This document shows, in pieces, positions 350 through 49,203 of a stretch of 64,000 bases of DNA; the first letter of the stretch is position 1, and each line of letters opens with the position of its first letter. The translations under genes and the position numbers were made by a program. The notes under the pieces were generated by a model, which was given only the letters and a program-made list of their open reading frames with translations, was not told the DNA's origin and searched no databases. Where the stretch lies: NCBI GenBank assembly GCA_964625885.1, contig CAZVBM010000002.1, positions 7,537-71,536 of the forward strand. Direction: 5' to 3'. This DNA comes from an uncultured Candidatus Saccharibacteria bacterium (lineage in GTDB: Bacteria > Patescibacteriota > Saccharimonadia > Saccharimonadales > Saccharimonadaceae).

Positions 350-3166
350 TTACTTCTTAAAGTATTGTTTCAAATATTGCCCAGTGTATGACTCGCCAAC
401 CCGACTAACATGTTCAGGCGTGCCGGTCGCAACGATTTCGCCGCCACCTTCACCACCTTCTGGGCCAAGATCAATAATCCAATCGGCTGATTTAATTACT
501 TCCAAGTTGTGCTCAATTACCACCACCGTGTTGCCTTCGTCAACTAATTTTTGAATAATATCAAGCAATCGCGCCACGTCGTCAATATGAAGTCCCGTGG
601 TTGGCTCATCAAGGATATAAAGTGTTTTACCAGTAGAGCGACGCGACAGTTCGGTGGCTAACTTAACTCGCTGCGCTTCACCGCCAGAAAGTGTCGTGGC
701 CGATTGACCGAGACCAATATAGCCTAGGCCGACTTCAACCATGGTGTCTAGCTTGCGTTTTAGATTTGGCAGGTTCTTAAAGAATTCAGCCGCTTCTTCA
801 ATCGTCATATCAAGCACATCGCTAATCGACTTACCTTTGTATTTAATCTCTAGAACTTCTTTGTTATAACGCCGACCATGACACTCGTCACAAGTCACGT
901 AAACATCTGGCAAAAAGTGCATCTCGATCTTTTTGACACCGTCGCCCTGACAAGCCTCACAGCGACCGCCTTTGACATTAAAACTAAAACGACCAGCTTT
1001 ATAACCACGTAAGTTGGCTTCGGGTAGCGACGCGAACAGATCGCGAATTTGCGTAAATAAGCCCGTATAAGTTGCTGGATTAGAACGCGGCGTACGCCCA
1101 ATCGCCGACTGATCAATCACGATGACTTTATCAATCTTTTCTAAGCCCTCAACACCATTGTGCTTGCCAGCGATTTCTTTGGCTCGATAAAACCGCGCCA
1201 TCAATTCACGCGCTAATATTTGATTAACCAGGGTAGATTTACCAGAGCCCGACACGCCAGTCACGCAAGTCAAAACGCCAATTGGGAAGCTAACATCAAT
1301 CTTTTTTAGATTGTGCTCACTAGCGCCTAAGACTGTGATCGCCTGATCTTTCTTAACCGCGCGGCGCTTCGCCGGCAAAGCGATTTTCTTTTTGCCACCC
1401 ATGTATTGCCCAGTGATGCTAGCTGGATTTTGCATCACCTCTTCGGGCGTACCAGCCGCGACGATTTCACCACCATGTTTACCAGCACCTGGACCAACAT
1501 CAATCAGATAATCGGCCTGACGAATCGTATCTTCGTCGTGCTCCACGACCAAAACTGTATTACCTAAGTCACGTAAATGTCTAAGCGTATCAAGTAGACG
1601 ATTATTATCACGCTGATGCAAACCGATTGATGGTTCGTCTAAAACATAAAGCACACCTTGTAAGCCAGAGCCAATTTGTGTTGCCAGACGGATGCGCTGT
1701 GATTCACCACCAGAGAGCGTATTAGCCGCTCGCCCAAGCGCCAAATAATTCAAACCAACATCGTGCAAGAAATCCAAGCGCGCCATAATTTCTTTGATAA
1801 TTGGCCGAGCGATTAGCATTTTTTCGTCCGACAATTTGATATGGGCAAAATACTCCACCGCTCGATCCACTGGTAAATCACTGACGTCCATAATACTTTT
1901 ATCAGCCACCGTGACCGCCAAAACTTCTGGCTTGAGTCGGCGACCTTTGCAAGCGTGGCAAGGAATTTCGCGCATAAAACGCTCGATATCTTTGCGAATA
2001 AATTCGGAGTCAGTTTCACGATGACGTCGCTCCAAGTTAGGGATCACCCCTTCGAAAATCGTGTCAAACGACCGGCCATTGCCAGCCTCCACGCTATAAG
2101 TATGGTCGCCAGTGCCATATAAAATTAACTGAACTTGATCTTTGGATAGTTTCTTAATCGGCACGCGCAAACTAAAGCCGTTCGCCTCAGCCACCACACT
2201 CAGGCGTTTGAGATACCAACTCTCATAACCAAGGCGATTATATGGCCGGATGCCACCCTCAGCAATAGTTAGGTTTGGATTTAAAACTAAACTTGAATCA
2301 ATCTCCTGACGAATACCCAGTCCAGTACAAACTGGACAAGCACCTAATGGCGCATTGAAACTAAACAAACGCGGTTCGAGTTCAGGAATGTTAACTTCTG
2401 GATGGACTGGACAGGCGTAGCGCAAGGAATAGTCAACGATTTCTTCCGTGTCAGCATCCAGAATTTCCACCACTTCGTTGCCGTGCTGTAAGGCTTGCTC
2501 AACCGAGTTGGTCAAACGCGCGCTCAAATCTGGACTCACTACCAAACGATCAACCACCAGCTCGATAGTATGTTTGTAGCTCTTTTGTAATTCAGGAAAT
2601 TCGTCCAAGTCATAAATCACACCATTAACCCGCACCCGGGCGTAGCCTTGCTTGGCATACTCGGCCGGAACATGCGCAAACTCACCCTTTTTTGCCTTAA
2701 CCAGTGGCGCCAAAATAATAATTCGCTTGCCCATAAAAGTCGCAGTGATTTCATCGATAATTGATTGCTCAGTTTGGCGCGAGACCTCACGGCCACAAAT
2801 CGGACAGTGCGGTACACCAACGCGAGCAAACAAGAGGCGCATATAGTCATAAATCTCGGTCACGGTTGCTACGGTTGAACGCGGATTGCGCGAAGCGGTT
2901 TTTTGATCAATTGAAATCGCTGGCGACAGGCCGGTAATCATATCAACGTCGGGTTTGTCCATGATGCCTAAGAATTGCCGCGCATAGCTAGACAAGCTCT
3001 CAACATAACGACGCTGGCCCTCGGCGTAAATCGTATCAAACGCCAAGGTTGATTTACCCGAACCAGACAAGCCAGTAATCACCACCAGCTTATCACGCGG
3101 AATCTTTAGATCGATATTTTTCAAATTGTGCTGACGCGCACCTTTTATCTCAATATAATCTTGCAT
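350..3166 (-). CDS. uvrA: Excinuclease ABC subunit A (UvrA)
   Basis: 938 aa with two ABC ATPase modules ([20 protein letters not shown]; LSGGE signatures) and CxxC zinc-finger pairs. The length and N-terminus [18 protein letters not shown] are typical of UvrA. Confidence 0.97.
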
Positions 3167-3807: not shown

Positions 3808-5274
3808 TTAAAAACTATCAGCTGGCGCCAGACTCTCCAGCCACAATTTTAATTCGCTGACATAAAACTCAGCTGATTCATTTTGCGCCAGAGATTCTAG
3901 CTCTTGCATAAAACTTGGCAACTGACACTGTAGACGTGCCGTGCGCCACTTTTCCCACCTTAGAGCTTCAGCTTCACTTAAACTGCGTGGGAAAGACCGA
4001 GCTTTGTAACCTAAGAACAGTTCTGGCAGGCGCTCATCACTAAACTCAGCTCGATATTCGCGTAGTTCATCGCTCGACAATCGACTAATCTCCTGCGTTC
4101 TTCGCCTATCTGAGTCATCTAAAAACGCATCGTATAATCGCTCTTCAGCAGGAGCTGGCGACTCATCAGTGAATTTCTGTTCGATTTGACGTTCTTTTAA
4201 GTCAGCTAATATATTAATGTTTTGAATCAGCTTTGGATTATCTTGCAAAGTTTTTACACGCTGTTTGATTGTTTCTGGATCAAGTTTCAGACGAGCATAA
4301 TCTTCTTTGCGCAGCACCGACATGGGCGCGACGGCCGGGCAGCGATTGTAGCGCAAAGTTTTAAAATAAACTCGCCTTTCGTTCACTTCTGCGTCATCAT
4401 TTTCGTCATCAGATTTGACATCTTTAAATTTTGAGTATTTAGCAAGAAAAGTGGCAAGTTCGGCAGGGGACTTGTCCAGCAAATCCGCCGGATCATAGCG
4501 CAAATTATAAACCATAATGTTGTTATTTTTACAATCAAAAATAGGGTAGGCGAGGGTAGTTTTTTCAAATTCTGATTCTAGTCGCCCACTGCTATACACA
4601 AACGGCGCTGGATGATCTAAATTAACTAGCTGCTGTACCGACTTTTTGTCGCGCATTTTTAGTAGATACCCCCACATTTTCGGGTCGGACTCTTTAATTA
4701 ACCGCCCCACCCCAATCAACGCCTCGACATCACTCAGAGCGTCATGCGCATGAGTATGCTCAAGATTGTTCAGCTTACTTAACAATTCCAGGCGGTTAGT
4801 TGCTTTGCCCTCGTCGTCAACCGGCCAGTTGATTTTGCCTGGCCGCACGGCGCGCGTAAAACGCACTACGTCGAGTAAGTCCCAACGACTACGACCGTCT
4901 TTATAGGCCCACTCATACGGATCACGAAAATTACGCCAAAATAGATGGCGAATGAACTCATCGTCAAAACGGACGTTATTATAGCCAACCACGATGGTGT
5001 TTGGCGTCAACATCTCGTTTAAAATTAGATCGCAAGCCTCAGCTTCGGTATAGCCTTCTTCAATGGTTTTTTGGGGCGTAATGCCCGTGACGCTGATCGC
5101 CATCGGACTAGGCAAAGTGTCTTCGCTCAGTTTAATTAAAAAATTATACGGCGCGCCAATTGGGTTTAAATCAAGATCGGTGCGCTGAGCGGCAAATTGC
5201 ATGATTCGATCAGAGCGTGGATTAAGTCCACTAGTTTCTAAATCGTAAAAAACAAAGCTTGGCTCAGGCATCAA
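3808..5274 (-). CDS. sbcB: Exodeoxyribonuclease I (SbcB)
   Basis: 488 aa. The N-terminal DEDDh exonuclease motif FVFYDLETSGLNP and the HDALSD motif match Exo I in length and architecture. Confidence 0.85.
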   Translation of the reverse strand: MMPEPSFVFYDLETSGLNPRSDRIMQFAAQRTDLDLNPIGAPYNFLIKLSEDTLPSPMAISVTGITPQKTIEEGYTEAEACDLILNEMLTPNTIVVGYNNVRFDDEFIRHLFWRNFRDPYEWAYKDGRSRWDLLDVVRFTRAVRPGKINWPVDDEGKATNRLELLSKLNNLEHTHAHDALSDVEALIGVGRLIKESDPKMWGYLLKMRDKKSVQQLVNLDHPAPFVYSSGRLESEFEKTTLAYPIFDCKNNNIMVYNLRYDPADLLDKSPAELATFLAKYSKFKDVKSDDENDDAEVNERRVYFKTLRYNRCPAVAPMSVLRKEDYARLKLDPETIKQRVKTLQDNPKLIQNINILADLKERQIEQKFTDESPAPAEERLYDAFLDDSDRRRTQEISRLSSDELREYRAEFSDERLPELFLGYKARSFPRSLSEAEALRWEKWRTARLQCQLPSFMQELESLAQNESAEFYVSELKLWLESLAPADSF

Positions 5275-6572
5275 TCAATTTCCTCGAGAGTGAATTCTGG
5301 ATCTTCGCCAATTTGCACCAGGCTCTCACCAATCGCGTCCTGCTTGATTAATTCACGCGTAATACCAGTTTTTCGCATAATATCACGCAAGCGATTGAGC
5401 GCTTCCCAACTTGAATAATCAGTGCGACGGCTAAAACGCTCGATTTTCTTACCAGTGACATGAAAAACGTCGCCAGTTTTTTCGACTTGCCATTTATCAG
5501 CTAATGCATCGGCGTCAAGTGAGATAACTGGTATCTCGTCGGCATCGTCTACCGGTGGCTCTTGCTCCAACTCAATCTGGCGCTGGCGTTCAGTCTTAAC
5601 TTGCTCGACCAGAACTCTTAGTAGATCTTTAATGCCCGATTTAGCAATCGAGGAGATAGCGTAGATGGGGGTGTCAGCTGGCACAACTGTGCGCAACCGC
5701 TCAATCTGATGTTTAATGATCTCATCATCTAGTCCATCAGCCTTGGTTAGGGCGACAACCTCTGGCCGTTCGCTCAAAATCACATCATGGGCAATTAATT
5801 CTTGACGAATTGTTGTGTAGTCTTTCGCTACATCATCATGCCAGGCATCAATTAGGTGTAGAAAAACTGCCGTGCGTTCAACATGGCGCAAAAACTCCGC
5901 GCCCAAACCTTTACCCTGACTAGCACCTTCTATTAAGCCTGGAATATCGGCAATCAAGAGGCTTGTGTCGTCAATCTTGGCCACACCCAAATTAGGCACC
6001 AAGGTCGTAAACTCATAATCAGCAATTTCTGGCTTGGCATTTGACACTATTGATAAAAACGTTGACTTACCAACATTGGGTAAGCCAATCAAACCAACAT
6101 CGGCCAACATCTTGAGCTCTAATTCAGCCGTAAATGCCTCGCCAGCCTCACCCCTCTCAGCAATCGTTGGCGCCTGACGCACCGACGATTTAAAATGCCA
6201 ATTACCGAAACCGCCTTCACCACCCCTAGCTATTACTTCTTTTTGACCATCTTCAATTAGGTCGGCAATCACCGCACCGTCACGCTTAACTATAGTGCCA
6301 ATCGGCACGCGAACCACCAAATCAGCGCCGTTTTTGCCGTGTCGCTTAGCTTTGCCACCATTACCGCCATTCTCGGCCGCCAACTCGGGCTGGAAACGCA
6401 AATTAATTAAGGTATCAATATCATGTACGGCTTCGAAAACCACATCACCGCCCTTGCCACCATCGCCACCGTCTGGGCCACCCTTGTCGACAAATTTTTC
6501 CCGACGAAAAGACCGCGCGCCATCACCGCCCTTACCTGCCATCAAGTTAACCGTTACAACATCTACAAACAT
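5271..6572 (-). CDS. obgE: GTPase Obg/CgtA
   Basis: Glycine-rich Obg fold (GKGGDGARSF, GGDGGKGGDV), G-domain GLPNVGKST and DIPGLIEGA, and a C-terminal OCT-like extension. Confidence 0.95.
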   Translation of the reverse strand: MFVDVVTVNLMAGKGGDGARSFRREKFVDKGGPDGGDGGKGGDVVFEAVHDIDTLINLRFQPELAAENGGNGGKAKRHGKNGADLVVRVPIGTIVKRDGAVIADLIEDGQKEVIARGGEGGFGNWHFKSSVRQAPTIAERGEAGEAFTAELELKMLADVGLIGLPNVGKSTFLSIVSNAKPEIADYEFTTLVPNLGVAKIDDTSLLIADIPGLIEGASQGKGLGAEFLRHVERTAVFLHLIDAWHDDVAKDYTTIRQELIAHDVILSERPEVVALTKADGLDDEIIKHQIERLRTVVPADTPIYAISSIAKSGIKDLLRVLVEQVKTERQRQIELEQEPPVDDADEIPVISLDADALADKWQVEKTGDVFHVTGKKIERFSRRTDYSSWEALNRLRDIMRKTGITRELIKQDAIGESLVQIGEDPEFTLEEID

Positions 6573-23725: not shown

Positions 23726-25816
23726 CTATCTCTTGCTTAAATTAGCGTATTGGGTGTTGAGCTTACGAGTTTTACCATCGTTAAAACGCACTGACACTGC
23801 TAGACCATCAACGTCAATCACTTCGCCCCGACCAAACTGTGGCGATTCCACAAAATCTCCCACCTCAAAAGCGTTAATAAAGTCGATTTCTTCATAAAAC
23901 GGCTCTAATCCATAGCGCGATGATGATATGTCGGGGCGAATGCAGTCCAAAAATTGCGAAGGTAATAGATATTGACGCTGTCCAAACACAAACCGCGAGC
24001 CAGCGTAGGTTAAATAGAGCTCCTCTTTGGCGCGCGTCATTGCCACGTAACAAAGGCGCCTCTCCTCTTCTAATTCACCCGGTTCATCATAAACTCGCGA
24101 ATGCGGAAAAGTCCCCTCCTCCATGCCGACGATAATCACCACTGGAAATTCCAGCCCTTTTGAAGCATGCATTGTCATTAGACTAACTTGATTGTCGTCA
24201 GCCACCTGATCAGTACTTGACATCAGAGCTGCATCTTCTAGAAAAGACTCGATATCGCTATAAAGCGCGGCCTCGCTAACTAAAACACCTAAGTTAGCCA
24301 ACCGGTCCTCACCCTCAATCGAACCGTCGCTCAAATAATCTTTATACCCCGATAGAACTATGGCCTTATCGATAATTTCACCTGGCGCCAAACCAACCTT
24401 AAATAATTGATCAATTTGGCTGATTATCTTAGCAAACTTTTCCAACTTGGTTCGAGCTACCGTCTTTAGCGGACTTTCCTCGAGATGATACAGCGCCTCA
24501 ACCAAGTTATAATTAGTGCTTTGTTGCCAGTTAATAAAGTTTTCAACCGTCACACTACCGATGCCACGCGCCGGTGTATTAATCGCCCGCGCTAAGCTCG
24601 CCACATCAGACGGCTGATAAACCAGCTTTATATAAGCCAAAATATCCTTAATTTCTTTGCGATCAAAAAAGCGCACACCACCAATCACCTTGTGTGGGAT
24701 CTGGTAGCGCATGAAGGCCTGCTCAACCTGGTAAGATTGAGCATTAGCGCGGTAAAGCACCGCGATGTCTGCCAAGTTATGTCCATCCAACACCGCCGAT
24801 TTAACGATTTCCGCCACGCGATTAGCTTCATCAACCTCATCACGCGTTTCAATTATGTCAATTGGCTTGCCGTCACCCGCCTCAGTCCAGATTTTCTTAT
24901 CAGTTCGCTGCTGATTTTGCTCAATCAATCGCTGAGCCGCTTGCAAGATATTATTAGTCGAACGATAATTTTGCTCTAACTTAACTTCTTTTGCCTCGGG
25001 CCAATCGCGTTTAAAATTCAAGATATTAGTAAAATCTGCTCCGCGCCACGAGTAAATTGACTGCCAATCATCACCAACCACGCAGATATTTTGTTGATCG
25101 CTAACCAACATTTTAACGATTTGATACTGGGCGTGGTTAGTATCTTGGTATTCATCAACCAGGATATGCAAGAAACGCTCTTGCCATAAAGCCCGAGTTT
25201 TTGGTTTGGTACGCAACAGGCGCACCACTTCCAGCAACAAATCATCAAAATCCAAAGCATTAGCCGACCGGCGAAGCGATTCATAGCGCTCATAGACCGC
25301 GGCCAACATCTTTTGTTTCTGGCCACGCGCCTGATCAAGCGCCTCAGCCAGATCAACCATTTTATTTTTATTCGATGAGATCACCGCTACCGCTAATTGC
25401 GGTTTTAGCTCTCGGTCGGAAATATTCAGATCTTTTAATGCTCGTTTCACCAAACCTAGCCGATCTGATTCGTCGTAAATAACGAACTTCTCGTCAATTT
25501 GGATTTCGACGCCACTTTCTCGCAAGATTTTGACACAAATACCGTGAAATGTGCCCATAAAAGGCATAAAATACCAGCTGTCTTCGCGCCCCAACAGATG
25601 AGCAAGACGCGAACGCATCTCTTTAGCCGCCTTATTTGTAAAGGTCACCGCCAAAATCTCATCTGGCTTCACGCCACAATTAGCAATCAAGTGCGCGATT
25701 CGATGTGTCAAAGTTTTGGTTTTACCGCTGCCGGGGCCAGCCAAAATCAAAAGCGGACCATCGGTTATCTTGACCGCCTCGCTTTGAGCGGCATTTAAGC
25801 CCCTAAAAACATCCAT
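23726..25816 (-). CDS. pcrA: ATP-dependent DNA helicase PcrA/UvrD (SF1)
   Basis: Motifs AGPGSGKT, DEYQDTN, VGDDWQSIYSWRGA, NYRS, MTMHASKGLEF and YVAMTRAK. Confidence 0.95.
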   Translation of the reverse strand: MDVFRGLNAAQSEAVKITDGPLLILAGPGSGKTKTLTHRIAHLIANCGVKPDEILAVTFTNKAAKEMRSRLAHLLGREDSWYFMPFMGTFHGICVKILRESGVEIQIDEKFVIYDESDRLGLVKRALKDLNISDRELKPQLAVAVISSNKNKMVDLAEALDQARGQKQKMLAAVYERYESLRRSANALDFDDLLLEVVRLLRTKPKTRALWQERFLHILVDEYQDTNHAQYQIVKMLVSDQQNICVVGDDWQSIYSWRGADFTNILNFKRDWPEAKEVKLEQNYRSTNNILQAAQRLIEQNQQRTDKKIWTEAGDGKPIDIIETRDEVDEANRVAEIVKSAVLDGHNLADIAVLYRANAQSYQVEQAFMRYQIPHKVIGGVRFFDRKEIKDILAYIKLVYQPSDVASLARAINTPARGIGSVTVENFINWQQSTNYNLVEALYHLEESPLKTVARTKLEKFAKIISQIDQLFKVGLAPGEIIDKAIVLSGYKDYLSDGSIEGEDRLANLGVLVSEAALYSDIESFLEDAALMSSTDQVADDNQVSLMTMHASKGLEFPVVIIVGMEEGTFPHSRVYDEPGELEEERRLCYVAMTRAKEELYLTYAGSRFVFGQRQYLLPSQFLDCIRPDISSSRYGLEPFYEEIDFINAFEVGDFVESPQFGRGEVIDVDGLAVSVRFNDGKTRKLNTQYANLSKR

Positions 25817-32265: not shown

Positions 32266-32410
32266 ATCCCACCGGGAAGGTTCGTTCGCTTTGCTTCCGA
32301 ACGCTCCGCCCGAACGCCAGATTAGTTTTGCTAACGCAAAACATCTGGGTTCGGTCCTGATGCGAAGCATCAAAAAAGAATACCCCAGCCGTTGGCTGAG
32401 GTATTCTTTT
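32266..32410 (-). repeat. tRNA-Glu-matched trailer unit: terminator-like hairpin, T-arm-derived palindrome and a 13-nt copy of the tRNA 3' part
   Basis: atcccaccgggaa at 32266-32278 repeats 32416-32428 inside the tRNA. ccgaacgccagat (32310-32322) and atctgggttcgg (32343-32354) form a hairpin made of tRNA-Glu T-arm sequence around gttttgctaacgcaaaac. Confidence 0.7.
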
Positions 32411-32485
32411 TGGTGATCCCACCGGGAATCGAACCCAGATTGCCAGGATGAAAACCTGGTGTCCTAACCGTTAGACGATGGGACC
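32411..32485 (-). tRNA. tRNA-Glu (anticodon UUC), CCA encoded
   Basis: Hand-folded cloverleaf: GGTCCCA/TGGGATC acceptor, anticodon loop TTTTCAT, T-arm CTGGG-TTCGATT-CCCGG. Confidence 0.9.
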
Positions 32486-38839: not shown

Positions 38840-38880
38840 CTTTTGGCTTTTGCGCTAAAAAGTGGTAAAATAACTCTAAT

Positions 38881-38957
38881 GCACCCGTAGCTCAGCGGAT
38901 TAGAGTACTTGGCTTCGAACCAAGGGGCCGCAGGTTCGAGTCCTGCCGGGTGCACCA
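38881..38957 (+). tRNA. tRNA-Arg (anticodon UCG), CCA encoded
   Basis: Hand-folded: acceptor GCACCCG/CGGGTGC, anticodon loop CTTCGAA, T-arm GCAGG-TTCGAGT-CCTGC. Confidence 0.9.
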
Positions 38958-39335
38958 TCCTCCGTCGCTATCCGTTGGATAGCTATGGAGGATTTTTTGT
39001 ACATCTAGGTAGGGCGAGAACCTGACTCGCCAGTTGGCGGGAGGTTCGGCGTAGCGCAGCGAAGCGAAAAAGTGTTTACATTTTTTCGCAAGCAAGCGAA
39101 GGAGCGAGCAAAGCGAGCGATGTCCTGCCGGGTGCACCATTAAAAAATAGCTACATTGTGGCCATTTTTTAATGGTCTATACCCAGACAGATTTGATTCT
39201 GCGGCGCGGCAGATTTAGCTGACGCAAGCCGCAGGTTCGGCGGAGGCGAAATGAGAAAAGAAAGCACTGTAGGTATTTTCTTTTCGAATGAGCCAGAGGA
39301 GGCAAAGCCGATGTCCTGCCACGCACCCATCACCC
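38958..39335 (+). repeat. Two tandem tRNA-Arg-matched units, each ending in a copy of the tRNA 3' part
   Basis: gtcctgccgggtgcacca (38940-38957) is repeated exactly at 39122-39139 and degenerately at 39313-39329. T-stem 5' copies lie at 39038-39049 (diverged) and 39228-39240 (12/13). Confidence 0.85.
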
Positions 39336-39385
39336 CTTGAATAAAACCCCAAAAAAGTGTAGAATAATCAGGCAAGAGAAGCTTA

Positions 39386-39974
<589 letters not shown>

Positions 39975-46497: not shown

Positions 46498-47154
46498 CTA
46501 GGTGGCGAACCAATCGTCAACAATTGGCCGGATGATTTGATAGATATCAGCCGCCACCTTTTCCTCGGACTGACTGGCGTCAACCAAATGACGACCATTT
46601 TGTTGACTAAGCTCGATATAACCCTGCCTGACTCGCTCGTGGAAATCAGCACCTTTTGACTCAAAGGTGTCAGCTTGGGCTGCAGCCAAGTCGCGCGACC
46701 GCATACGCTCCTGGATTGTTGGCACATCGACCATCAAGATTATTTCAGCGCCTGGCTTGGTGTAGTCTTTTGGCAACCACATTTTCGTCGAAGCAATGAT
46801 GTCATCAAGATCAACGCCTTCGCCATAGCCCTGATAAGCCAATGTCGACAAATAGCTCCGCGATGAAATAACCCAAATGCCCTCTTGCAATTTTGGGCCA
46901 TAAACCGTGTTCCACGCATCAGCCCTGGCGGCCAAGAACAACAAAGCGTTCGTCTTGGGATGACGATCGATCTCTTTGTTCTTTAAAATACCCTTTAAAG
47001 TATCCGCCATAACCGTTCCGCCTGGCTCCTCAATCTCAATGCATTTAATGCCATAACTACGTAACCGTGCCAGCAAGCGCTGCACTTGAGTTGATTTGCC
47101 AGAACCATCACCACCGTCTAATACAATGTACCTACCTCTTTTCACAAAATTCAC
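46498..47154 (-). CDS. tmk: Thymidylate kinase
   Basis: P-loop LDGGDGSGKSTQ and DRY-like region. 218 aa. Confidence 0.9.
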   Translation of the reverse strand: MNFVKRGRYIVLDGGDGSGKSTQVQRLLARLRSYGIKCIEIEEPGGTVMADTLKGILKNKEIDRHPKTNALLFLAARADAWNTVYGPKLQEGIWVISSRSYLSTLAYQGYGEGVDLDDIIASTKMWLPKDYTKPGAEIILMVDVPTIQERMRSRDLAAAQADTFESKGADFHERVRQGYIELSQQNGRHLVDASQSEEKVAADIYQIIRPIVDDWFAT

Positions 47155-47240
47155 CTCACCTTTTATTTGTTTTTAATAAGATATAGTTCTAATATACACC
47201 ATTGGCCTAAATCGGTCCAATATGGTAAAATAATGAAGCT

Positions 47241-47315
47241 TGCGGGTGTCGTATAATGGCTAATATATCTGCCTTCCAAGCAGAGGCTGCGAGTTCGATT
47301 CTCGCCACCCGCACC
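47241..47315 (+). tRNA. tRNA-Gly (anticodon UCC), CCA encoded
   Basis: Hand-folded: acceptor GCGGGTG/CACCCGC, anticodon loop CTTCCAA, T-arm GCGAG-TTCGATT-CTCGC. Confidence 0.9.
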
Positions 47316-47568
47316 AGACCGCATTTGAGGCTTTAGTCTCAAATAAGGTATGCTCGGCGTAGAAGAGAAGCGAACTCTTCGATAATTTCGCGGTCAGCGA
47401 AATTACATGTTGAGCCCAAGAAAACCAGCAACCTAAAAAATAGTTTTCATGGCGCGAGACTATATTCTCGCCACCCGCACCAAATCGTATTTGAGATTTT
47501 AATCTCAAATGCGAGTTGGCTCAGCATGGAAGAGAAGCGAACTCTTCGTTCTCGCCACCAACATCGTA
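47316..47568 (+). repeat. Two tandem tRNA-Gly-matched units between tRNA-Gly and tRNA-Arg(UCU)
   Basis: attctcgccacccgcacca (47297-47315) is repeated at 47463-47481. A degenerate third copy, ttctcgccacc, lies at 47548-47558. Both units start with an atttgag...ctcaaat hairpin and share gaagagaagcgaactcttcg. Confidence 0.85.
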
Positions 47569-47645
47569 TGCCTCGGTAGCTCAGCTGGATAGAGCAGGAG
47601 ACTTCTAAGCTCAAGGTCATAGGTTCGACTCCTATCCGAGGCGCC
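47569..47645 (+). tRNA. tRNA-Arg (anticodon UCU), CCA encoded
   Basis: Hand-folded: acceptor GCCTCGG/CCGAGGC, anticodon loop CTTCTAA (the anticodon stem has mismatches), T-arm ATAGG-TTCGACT-CCTAT. Terminator tcgcc-acacaa-ggcga with a T-run follows. Confidence 0.85.
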
Positions 47646-47676
47646 AAATTATTCGCCACACAAGGCGATTTTTTGT

Positions 47677-49203
47677 TTAATAAATCGTTTCAATATTTGC
47701 ACCAAGGGAGTTGAGGCGGCGAGCAAAGTCTTCATAACCCCGATTGATTGAGTAGACATTGCGCAAAATCGACTCGCCTTCGGCCGCCAACATCGCTAGC
47801 ATCAACACTACCGCTGGCCTTAGGGCTGGTGGCGTGACAATTTCTGCTGGCTTGAAGTTAGTTGGTCCAGTGATAATAATGCGGTGCGGATCAATTAGTT
47901 GAGTCGAGACATTTAATTTACTCAGCTCAGCCAAGTAAATCGCCCGGTTCTCGTACACCCAGTCATGAATCATCGTTGGCCCCTCCGCCACCGCCGCAAT
48001 CACCGCAAAAAAGGGCAGGTTATCGATGTTTAAGCCCGGATATGGCATCGGGTGAATTTTATCAACTGAGCAGGTCAACTTGCTCGGCTTTATTGTTATA
48101 TCAACCAGCTTAGTACGCTCATTGCGCGAGAAATAAACATCAGAAACTTTTAAGTTCGCCCCCATGCCCCGCAAAGTTTCGATTTCAACTTCGAGAAAAT
48201 CGATTGGCGCACGCTTAACGGTAATCTCCGAATTGGTTACCAGGCCAGCAGCGATGAAGCTCATAGCTTCAATCGGGTCTTCGCTAATTTCATAACTAAC
48301 GTTTTTATTAATATCGGCAAGACCCTGAACTCTTAGAAGCGTCGTACCGATCCCTTCAATGCGCACCCCTAATTTTTCTAGGAAGAAGCAGACGTCTTGC
48401 ACCATATAGTTCGGACTAGCGTTGTGAATTTCAGTCACGCCACTATGCAAGGCTGCCGCCATCAAGACGTTTTCTGTTACGGTATCACCTCGCTCCACCA
48501 AGACAATCTTGACTGGCTTTTTAGGGTCAACCGCTGAAACTTCAGCTTTATAAAACCCGCCAGCAGTATTGACGCTTAGGCCAAATGATTCTAAGGCCTT
48601 AAGATGCGGCTCAACCGTACGTGCCCCAAGATTACAGCCACCAGCGTACGGTAGCTTGAAGCGCTTATTTTTGTGAAGCAAGACCCCCATTAGCATAATC
48701 ACGCTACGGGTCATACGAGCCGACTCGAGGTTAATTTGGTTAGTATCAAAGCTAACTGGTGGAATTATTTCTAAATCACGATGATTGTTAAGCCAACGAA
48801 CTTTGACGCCCAAACTCTCAATCACTTCAATGATGCGATAAACTTCTTCAATGTTAGCGACGTGCCTGAGCACAGTCTTGCCACGGTTAAGTAACGAAGC
48901 GCAAAGTAGCGCTACAGCCGCGTTTTTTGAGGTATTAATGTTAATTGAGCCGCTTAGTTTCTTGCCACCATTGATACGAAAATGGATCACTCCCTTTTGG
49001 CCAAACGTCAACAGCCCCACTTTTAAAACCTCGCTGATCCTTTCGATCATCTCGAGACTAATGTTTTGTTTACCTTTCTCAATGCGGTTAATCGCACTCT
49101 GGGAAGTACCAACTTTGACCGCCAAATCAGCCTGTGTCATGTTTTTTTGCAAACGCGCGCGCTGAATCAAGTCCCCCACTAAACGTTTATAATTCTTTAC
49201 CAT
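47677..49203 (-). CDS. murA: XRE-type HTH domain fused to UDP-N-acetylglucosamine 1-carboxyvinyltransferase (MurA)
   Basis: The N-terminal 65 aa (LIQRARLQKNMTQADLAVKVGTSQSAINRIEKGKQNISLEMIERISEVL) form a classic HTH_3. The rest is a MurA/EPSP-fold protein (SKNAAVALLCASLL; GGCNLGARTVEPH with the catalytic Cys). Confidence 0.85.
   Translation of the reverse strand: MVKNYKRLVGDLIQRARLQKNMTQADLAVKVGTSQSAINRIEKGKQNISLEMIERISEVLKVGLLTFGQKGVIHFRINGGKKLSGSININTSKNAAVALLCASLLNRGKTVLRHVANIEEVYRIIEVIESLGVKVRWLNNHRDLEIIPPVSFDTNQINLESARMTRSVIMLMGVLLHKNKRFKLPYAGGCNLGARTVEPHLKALESFGLSVNTAGGFYKAEVSAVDPKKPVKIVLVERGDTVTENVLMAAALHSGVTEIHNASPNYMVQDVCFFLEKLGVRIEGIGTTLLRVQGLADINKNVSYEISEDPIEAMSFIAAGLVTNSEITVKRAPIDFLEVEIETLRGMGANLKVSDVYFSRNERTKLVDITIKPSKLTCSVDKIHPMPYPGLNIDNLPFFAVIAAVAEGPTMIHDWVYENRAIYLAELSKLNVSTQLIDPHRIIITGPTNFKPAEIVTPPALRPAVVLMLAMLAAEGESILRNVYSINRGYEDFARRLNSLGANIETIY

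Follow-up and report, generated by a model that had tools for sequence, protein, structure and literature searches.

Tandem tRNA-tail modules with an RtT-like build between tRNA-Gly(UCC) and tRNA-Arg(UCU) in a Saccharibacteria genome

Two tandem modules in the tRNA-Gly(UCC)-tRNA-Arg(UCU) spacer

The locus studied here lies in the window, that is, the whole stretch of 64,000 nucleotides that was analysed, and it holds two tRNA genes on the plus strand: tRNA-Gly(UCC) with an encoded CCA (47242-47316; called by ARAGORN and by Rfam, 64.7 bits) and tRNA-Arg(UCU) (47570-47646; called by ARAGORN and Rfam), separated by a spacer of 253 nt. The surrounding genes are tmk, thyA, a dihydrofolate reductase gene, murB and murA, the last with an N-terminal HTH domain, and the best relatives place the genome in Saccharibacteria, near a Nanosyncoccaceae MAG. 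The only promoter predicted for the locus is a sigma-70-like sequence 5' of tRNA-Gly (TTGGCC-18-TGgTAAAAT, 47202-47231, plus strand), whose TGnTAAAAT element is kept in the related loci L001, L095 and L104. The only intrinsic terminator given by the terminator scan lies 3' of tRNA-Arg (47653-47678, plus strand) and ends the Gly-spacer-Arg unit, and a search of the locus for an own or internal promoter of tRNA-Arg(UCU) detected none. With one promoter and one terminator predicted in all, the region between the genes would be an internal transcribed spacer, and on the basis of these scans we infer that it belongs to a tRNA-Gly(UCC)-tRNA-Arg(UCU) operon.

The entire spacer folds on the plus strand at -96 kcal/mol, with a z-score of -8.1 against shuffled sequences, and on the minus strand the z-score is -5.2. 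It is made up of two tandem modules, built from a hairpin that follows the CCA, an antisense image of the T-arm and a sense tRNA copy that starts from T-loop position 58. All features described below for this spacer are on the plus strand.

Module 1 (unit A, 47317-47482, 166 nt) folds at -54.7 kcal/mol (z -5.45), and a consensus structure was obtained for it across four loci. Its first hairpin, H1 (ATTTGAGGC/GTCTCAAAT, 47323-47344), lies 6 nt 3' of the CCA. Next comes a three-way junction, closed by stem a/a' (47352-47360 paired with 47407-47415), which is present both in the fold and in the consensus structure, and holding the hairpins H2 (GAAGAG-AAGCGAA-CTCTTC, 47362-47380) and H3 (TAATTTCGC-GGTCA-GCGAAATTA, 47383-47405). 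The junction is followed by H4 (GAAAAC/GTTTTC with a 17-nt loop, 47416-47452), by the pseudo-T-arm H5 (GCGAGA-CTATAT-TCTCGC, 6 bp, 47454-47459 with 47466-47471) and by a single-stranded ACCCGCACCA tail. The module ends with ATTCTCGCCACCCGCACCA, an exact 19-nt copy of tRNA-Gly positions 58-76 (47464-47482; original at 47298-47316). Apart from one mismatch, a G opposite A58, the centre of H2, GAGAAGCGAACTC, is the tRNA-Gly T-arm GAGTTCGATTCTC in reverse complement, and the loop of this antisense T-arm, GAGAAGCGAAC, is invariant, the G opposite A58 included. Scored over the whole arm, module 1 has a 12/17 antisense match at offset 46 (p 0.01 against shuffles).

Module 2 (unit B, 47483-47559, 77 nt) corresponds to module 1 minus a core of 83 nt with three hairpins (47382-47464), which is present in module 1 and absent from module 2. 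It consists of H1' (47485-47497 with 47502-47514), H2' with the second GAAGAG-AAGCGAA-CTCTTC (47529-47547) and, at its end, an 11-nt copy of tRNA-Gly positions 59-69 (47549-47559). The remaining 10 nt form the tRNA-Arg leader AACATCGTAT (47560-47569), which resembles AATCGTAT 3' of the second CCA.

The repeats are far beyond chance, and the two-unit organisation that the first-pass annotation had described is real. TTCTCGCCACC is present three times (47299, 47465 and 47549), where shuffling gives an expectation of 0.04 and none of 100 shuffles reaches three. GAAGAG-AAGCGAA-CTCTTC has exactly two occurrences with 0 expected by chance, and the ATTTGAG-N8-CTCAAAT hairpin opens both units (47323-47344 and 47490-47511) within a direct repeat that reaches 47 nt at 87% identity. 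These two shared hairpins had been pointed out before, as had the duplicated tRNA-Gly 3' end (placed about one base too low), the shorter degenerate copy of 11 nt, and the diverged T-arm in front of the longer copy, GGCGCGAG-ACTATAT-TCTCGCC, which does fold as a 6-bp hairpin. The units themselves thus stand as described; what had been overlooked is the wider family of elements, the nature of GAGAAGCGAACTC as an antisense T-arm image and the recurrence at other tRNAs of the window.

A further proposal was that the second unit forms a T-arm-less, tRNA-like minihelix (47510-47561, 52 nt), closed by an acceptor-like stem. Its parts are there as letters: GCGAG at 47510-47514, CTCGC at 47551-47555, a D-arm-like GGCTCAGCATGG that is 74% identical to the D-arm of tRNA-Arg, the hairpin with the 7-nt loop and the CACCA end; the anticodon-like loop has no U33, as had been conceded from the start. 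The tRNA-like fold is what fails. The segment folds at -14 kcal/mol, as compared to -12.8 +/- 2.9 for shuffles (z -0.42; 62 of 200 shuffles as good), and GCGAG does not pair with CTCGC in the lowest-energy fold of unit B. Neither ARAGORN nor the Rfam tRNA model (RF00005) calls a tRNA in it, even at E<=10, and the second units of two orthologous spacers (variant Z in L001 and module X in L094, see below) have neither the GCGAG 5' strand nor the D-arm-like segment. We reject the mini-tRNA as a conserved fold; the idea is largely refuted, and that the unit works as a T-arm-less mini-tRNA or minihelix is very improbable.

Other contents were considered for the spacer. In the 147-nt interval between tRNA-Gly and the 19-nt copy there is no credible open reading frame, only short and unconserved ones, for which reason a tpr-like small protein, as in E. 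coli, was dropped. Hammerhead or other ribozyme cores had no Rfam support, and an Rfam search at E<=10 of this spacer and of the Arg-His spacer described below gave no meaningful family.

Variation and constraint among relatives

Contigs of the same species differ in the spacer at three positions only. In stem a/a', the G/A change at 47357 turns a G-U pair into A-U and the C/T change at 47520 in module 2 turns C-G into U-G with the pairing with 47414 kept, so that both leave the pair intact; the third (T/C at 47394) lies inside the H3 loop. Stem a/a' also contains three G-U pairs that become C-A mismatches if the stem is read on the minus strand. The substitutions preserve the structure and favour the plus strand. 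A tRNA-like gene on the minus strand, conceivable in that the complement of H2 resembles a T-arm with C58, was rejected because both the G-U pairs and the SNPs speak for the plus strand and ARAGORN calls no such gene.

Among related loci the modules are gained, lost and rearranged. L001 (MurA 92% identical) and L094 have two-unit spacers with the modules in other positions: unit B of the window (Y) makes up the 5' part of unit A in these two loci, and the window's module X is unit B in L094, where X and Y have exchanged positions relative to the window. L001 carries a third variant, Z, with an H1 that differs in sequence and is still a hairpin. In L095 (MurA 87% identical) there is one unit, and the sites are empty in L104 (MurA 87%), with a spacer of 5 nt, and in L107 (79%), with a spacer of 17 nt. 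Because relatives with such 5-17 nt spacers exist, the Gly-Arg element is dispensable. Remoter Saccharibacteria have unrelated spacers, either of a few bases or, when longer, with a terminator and a promoter. The comparison covers loci whose contigs extend across the spacer; those of the Tmk relatives P0002, P0004 and P0005 stop short of it.

The interval on the other side of tRNA-Arg(UCU), towards murA, is 30 nt in the window and appears as a variable hot spot, with unrelated ORF inserts in relatives. L001 has a 575-nt insert (5525-6099), L094 an ORF of 258 aa (1454-2509), L104 two ORFs (3992-5943) and L105 an insert (4172-5228) with genes different from those in L001, L094 and L104. In L106 (3395-5825, MurA 81% identical) we found an array of 14 tRNAs in about 1.3 kb with spacers of 3-94 nt, including one tRNA with a CUA anticodon that ARAGORN calls tRNA-Pyl and that is probably a suppressor-type tRNA. 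MurA of the window (47677-49203, minus strand) has an N-terminal XRE-type HTH domain, which is also found in L026, L036, L037, L050, L054 and others. Full-length homologues of this protein with 61-63% identity occur in Actinomycetota (Humibacillus, Knoellia, Pedococcus and Intrasporangium) and are as close as most other Saccharibacteria, a likeness that hints at gene exchange between Saccharibacteria epibionts and their actinobacterial hosts.

The modules have changed little between loci. Between the window and L001 or L095, murA is 76-79% identical as DNA and 40-42% identical at fourfold sites; the 83-nt core of module 1 is 95% identical to L001 and 84% to L095, and modules X and Y are 94% and 91% identical between loci, respectively. 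The differences in the core between species lie in hairpin loops or are compensatory, as with a C-G to U-A change in H3 of L095, and in H4 every between-species difference sits in the loop. In H1, compared over six modules (few sequences, and partly paralogous), 8 of 12 pairs have changed on both sides, 96% of the cells are paired and none of 500 shuffles matches this. H2 shows no covariation, and its loop sequence is invariant. Judged from these sequence comparisons, the identities suggest that the modules are under selection; they could instead reflect recent lateral exchange of the locus between species. Strong conservation of this kind suggests that the RNA is used.

The same build behind other tRNAs and in E. 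coli

At least four tRNA species, those for Gly, Glu, Arg and His, are followed by the element. Copies of a tRNA's own tail of at least 11 nt within 450 nt downstream were present for 12 of the 141 tRNAs in the loci examined, as compared to two upstream copies and no reverse-complement copies for the same 141 tRNAs. Beyond the window, tail copies occur at tRNA-Gly (L023, L061), tRNA-Glu (L052, L059, L069) and tRNA-His (L014). They mostly lie 129-183 nt downstream, with one at 55 nt, and mostly start at T-loop position 58 or 59; kb-scale copies were seen in none of the loci examined, tandem tRNA genes that share a tail aside.

Two of these elements lie elsewhere in the window. Behind tRNA-Arg(UCG) (38881-38957) there are two units (38958-39327, plus strand), the first ending in an exact 18-nt copy of positions 59-76 (39122-39139) and the second in a degenerate copy (39313-39327). 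The spacer that they occupy, between tRNA-Arg(UCG) and tRNA-His (38958-39403), thus holds two units of about 180 nt, each opening with a terminator-like hairpin. The element behind tRNA-Glu(UUC) (32411-32485) is on the minus strand (32266-32410) and consists of a canonical terminator hairpin, an antisense T-arm and a 13-nt tail copy (32278-32266). It also has a hairpin, GTTTTGCGTTAGCAAAAC, like H3 of the Gly unit in L095, and a AAGCGAAC motif, and the units at tRNA-Glu in L052, L059 and L069 are comparable to it. The Glu and Arg(UCG) units lie beyond canonical terminators and may therefore be transcribed poorly, and several Saccharibacteria units sit between two similar terminator hairpins. 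The family turns over fast and individual modules are conserved; the fast turnover is apparent because the orthologous Arg(UCG)-His spacer lacks the units in L112, where it is 6 nt, and is long but decayed in L111. In a search of metagenomes, the H2 motif ARAGAGAAGCGAACTYTTCGWT turned up only three times, as chance matches within unrelated high-GC coding sequence.

Repeats behind E. coli tyrT and the rtT RNA have been known for decades (1978-1991). The tyrT locus contains 178-bp repeats that carry the tail of tRNA-Tyr, and Bosl and Kersten (1991) reportedly found that processing of the tRNA precursor frees the RtT unit as a small RNA. In NC_000913 we found the ncRNA annotation rttR at the tyrT/tyrV locus and four units of the RtT family RF00391 (133-137 bits). 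All four finish with AATCCTTCCCCCACCACCA, identical to positions 58-76 of tRNA-Tyr, and each holds GAAGGATGAGAAGCTTC, an antisense T-arm with a 14/17 match at offsets 59-62 and a G opposite A58. Across 13 units, those of E. coli among them, a search for the antisense of the cognate T-arm places its best match 44-62 nt into the unit in 12 cases, eight of them with p<=0.01 against shuffles; the unit of L052 has none. The G opposite A58 recurs in eight of the nine best-matched units, and the 5' half of the sense T-stem usually follows, 63-85 nt into the units. The function of rtT is still described as unknown (bioRxiv 10.1101/2024.07.17.603846).

The likeness between the two systems is one of layout. 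In both, units lie directly 3' of a tRNA, on the same strand and in tandem, with a length of 166-182 nt here and about 178 nt in E. coli. At its end the unit has an exact 19-nt cognate copy (58-76), which is complete (19/19) in module 1 and reduced to 11 nt in module 2, and it carries the antisense cognate T-arm about 45-60 nt in, with G opposite A58, and then the 5' half of the sense T-stem. GAGAA and GCGAA(G) motifs are common to both. The differences are also clear. The closing stem in E. coli pairs the antisense segment with the terminal copy over 10 bp, whereas here a local pseudo-T-arm closes the terminal copy. The Gly modules lie between two tRNAs while the E. coli units follow the last tRNA, module 1 has an extra 83-nt core and no tpr-like small ORF is present here. 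Finally, the host is a candidate-phyla-radiation bacterium, with the element behind at least four tRNA species. Searches with RF00391 of 47100-47750 and 38850-39500 gave no match at the gathering score or at E<=10, so we speak of resemblance to RtT and not of membership. In Smith-Waterman comparisons with E. coli RtT, made as a check on homology beyond the tRNA-derived parts, the shuffle z-scores were 1.4 for the Gly unit, 3.8 for tRNA-Arg(UCG) (p 0.003), 2.8 for L061 and 2.3 for L014, and plain sequence similarity is significant only for the tRNA-Arg(UCG) unit. With direct similarity this weak, RtT and these units may or may not share an ancestor, and convergence could account for their common architecture.

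Small RNAs from the transcribed spacers of tRNA and rRNA operons offer a second comparison, such as 3'ETS-leuZ and, between dual terminators, rrA/rrB/rrF (PMC8144298). Like the modules, these are non-tRNA RNAs that arise as by-products of the transcription and processing of stable-RNA operons; unlike the modules, they have neither copies of the neighbouring tRNA 3' end nor an antisense T-arm.

Origin and possible use of the modules

We favour, with moderate confidence, the reading that the Gly-Arg spacer is an RtT-like tRNA trailer that arose by duplication at a T-loop junction, is co-transcribed with the tRNAs and is under selection. The modules would arise by duplication or recombination with the junction inside the T-loop (57|58), and recombination between the repeated tRNA tails could then let them be gained, lost and swapped between neighbouring positions. 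Transcribed from the lone predicted tRNA-Gly promoter, they would form a compact RNA of several hairpins. They may be excised during maturation of the two tRNAs, by RNase P at the 5' end of tRNA-Arg and by 3' trimming to tRNA-like ends; the products, by analogy with E. coli rtT, would be RNAs of about 165 and 85 nt with a tRNA-Gly-like 3' end. The conserved modules suggest a use for such an RNA, most plausibly one in which it imitates the 3' end of the tRNA.

The modules might alternatively be decaying tandem duplicates of a minimal tRNA-Gly unit of about 166 bp (tRNA, hairpin and promoter), generated by unequal crossing-over. They would then be functionless pseudogenes, retained only through their position in the operon, where they must not block the expression of tRNA-Arg. 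The period of 166-182 nt is about the size of a promoter, a tRNA and a terminator taken together, and L023 has a remnant of the 5' acceptor and D-arm (GCGGGCGTGTCG...) just 5' of its 19-nt copy. The diverged T-arm that precedes the copy at 47464, the visible decay of the copies in L061 and L111 and the empty sites, which mark the element as dispensable, would also be expected of dying duplicates. Neutral decay gives no reason, however, to expect a sharp 57|58 boundary that recurs from one tRNA to another and in E. coli, an antisense T-arm at a fixed offset, module identities of 84-95% where fourfold sites have fallen to 40-42%, or substitutions that preserve structure. Moreover, tRNA-Gly positions 1-57 have no detectable homologue in module 1 (positions 44-57 match at 7/14, p 0.97). 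We regard this origin as unlikely.

Island integration, too, classically leaves the 3' part of a tRNA as a direct repeat, made up of a regenerated target and a displaced fragment, as PMC4383910 describes. Applied here, elements with a tyrosine integrase would have entered the 3' part of tRNA-Gly, and the inserts would be deletion remnants of about 150 bp between the att repeats or miniature elements with att sites only, mobilised in trans. Like the tRNA fragments of islands and prophages (Islander), the repeats lie downstream of an intact gene, are in direct orientation and start in the T-loop, and close relatives show filled and empty sites. Each copy is followed by its own hairpin, and different genes have been inserted beside tRNA-Arg(UCU) in L001, L094, L104 and L105. 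Unlike island fragments, the repeats are only 55-183 nt apart, no integrase, cargo or credible ORF lies between them, and the interval is conserved and structured. The scar model accounts for neither the conserved fold nor the antisense T-arm. Random deletion would scatter the insert lengths, but they cluster at 129-183 nt with no kb-scale copies in the loci examined; the 19-mer has no match in 2.9 million viral contigs, and E. coli RtT has the same build with no known integrating element. Integration scars are in our judgement distinctly improbable as the source. A reverse-transcription origin was considered as well, prompted by the mismatch at the m1A58 position and by copies of 18-19 nt like retroviral primer-binding sites; we found no evidence in support of it and dropped it.

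Returning to the RtT-like trailer, the identical 57|58 junction, the antisense T-arm at the same offset and the G opposite A58 recur in a candidate-phyla-radiation lineage. A bolder extension, tentative and somewhat doubtful to us, is that RtT-type trailers form a phylum-spanning class, in which one mechanism acting at 57|58 appends an antisense T-arm and a copy of positions 58-76, some of the products being kept as functional mimics of the tRNA 3' end. If this were true, the Saccharibacteria units would provide comparative material for working out E. coli rtT. The tRNA-tail repeats of the tyrT locus are long known; in the searchable literature this architecture appears to be undescribed for Saccharibacteria, where it follows several tRNAs and is probably under selection. 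Its recurrence, gain and loss, and constraint suggest a general process or function linked to tRNA genes rather than a one-off duplication. In practice, annotation pipelines could flag tRNA-tail copies, which would avoid confusion with island boundaries or pseudo-tRNAs, and the modules define concrete small-RNA candidates for cultured Saccharibacteria.

Copies of tRNA ends were also noticed in other settings. In the window, a 12-nt match to the tail common to tRNA-Pro(UGG) and tRNA-Pro(CGG), TCGCCCCGACCA, lies at 23823-23834 (plus strand) and an inverted 10-nt copy of the Pro tail lies 105 nt away at 23930-23939 (minus strand); both are remote from tRNA genes and may be chance matches in a coding region. 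The 5' flank of tRNA-His holds tandem repeats of about 107 nt in L111 (about 1933-2170) and in L114 (about 1814-1940, minus strand), each opening with the first 19 or so nt of tRNA-His (GGCGGCCGTAGCTCGGTTG) and continuing with a T-loop-like GTTCGAAAC. These repeats mirror the trailer elements, the duplicated end of the tRNA being the 5' one.
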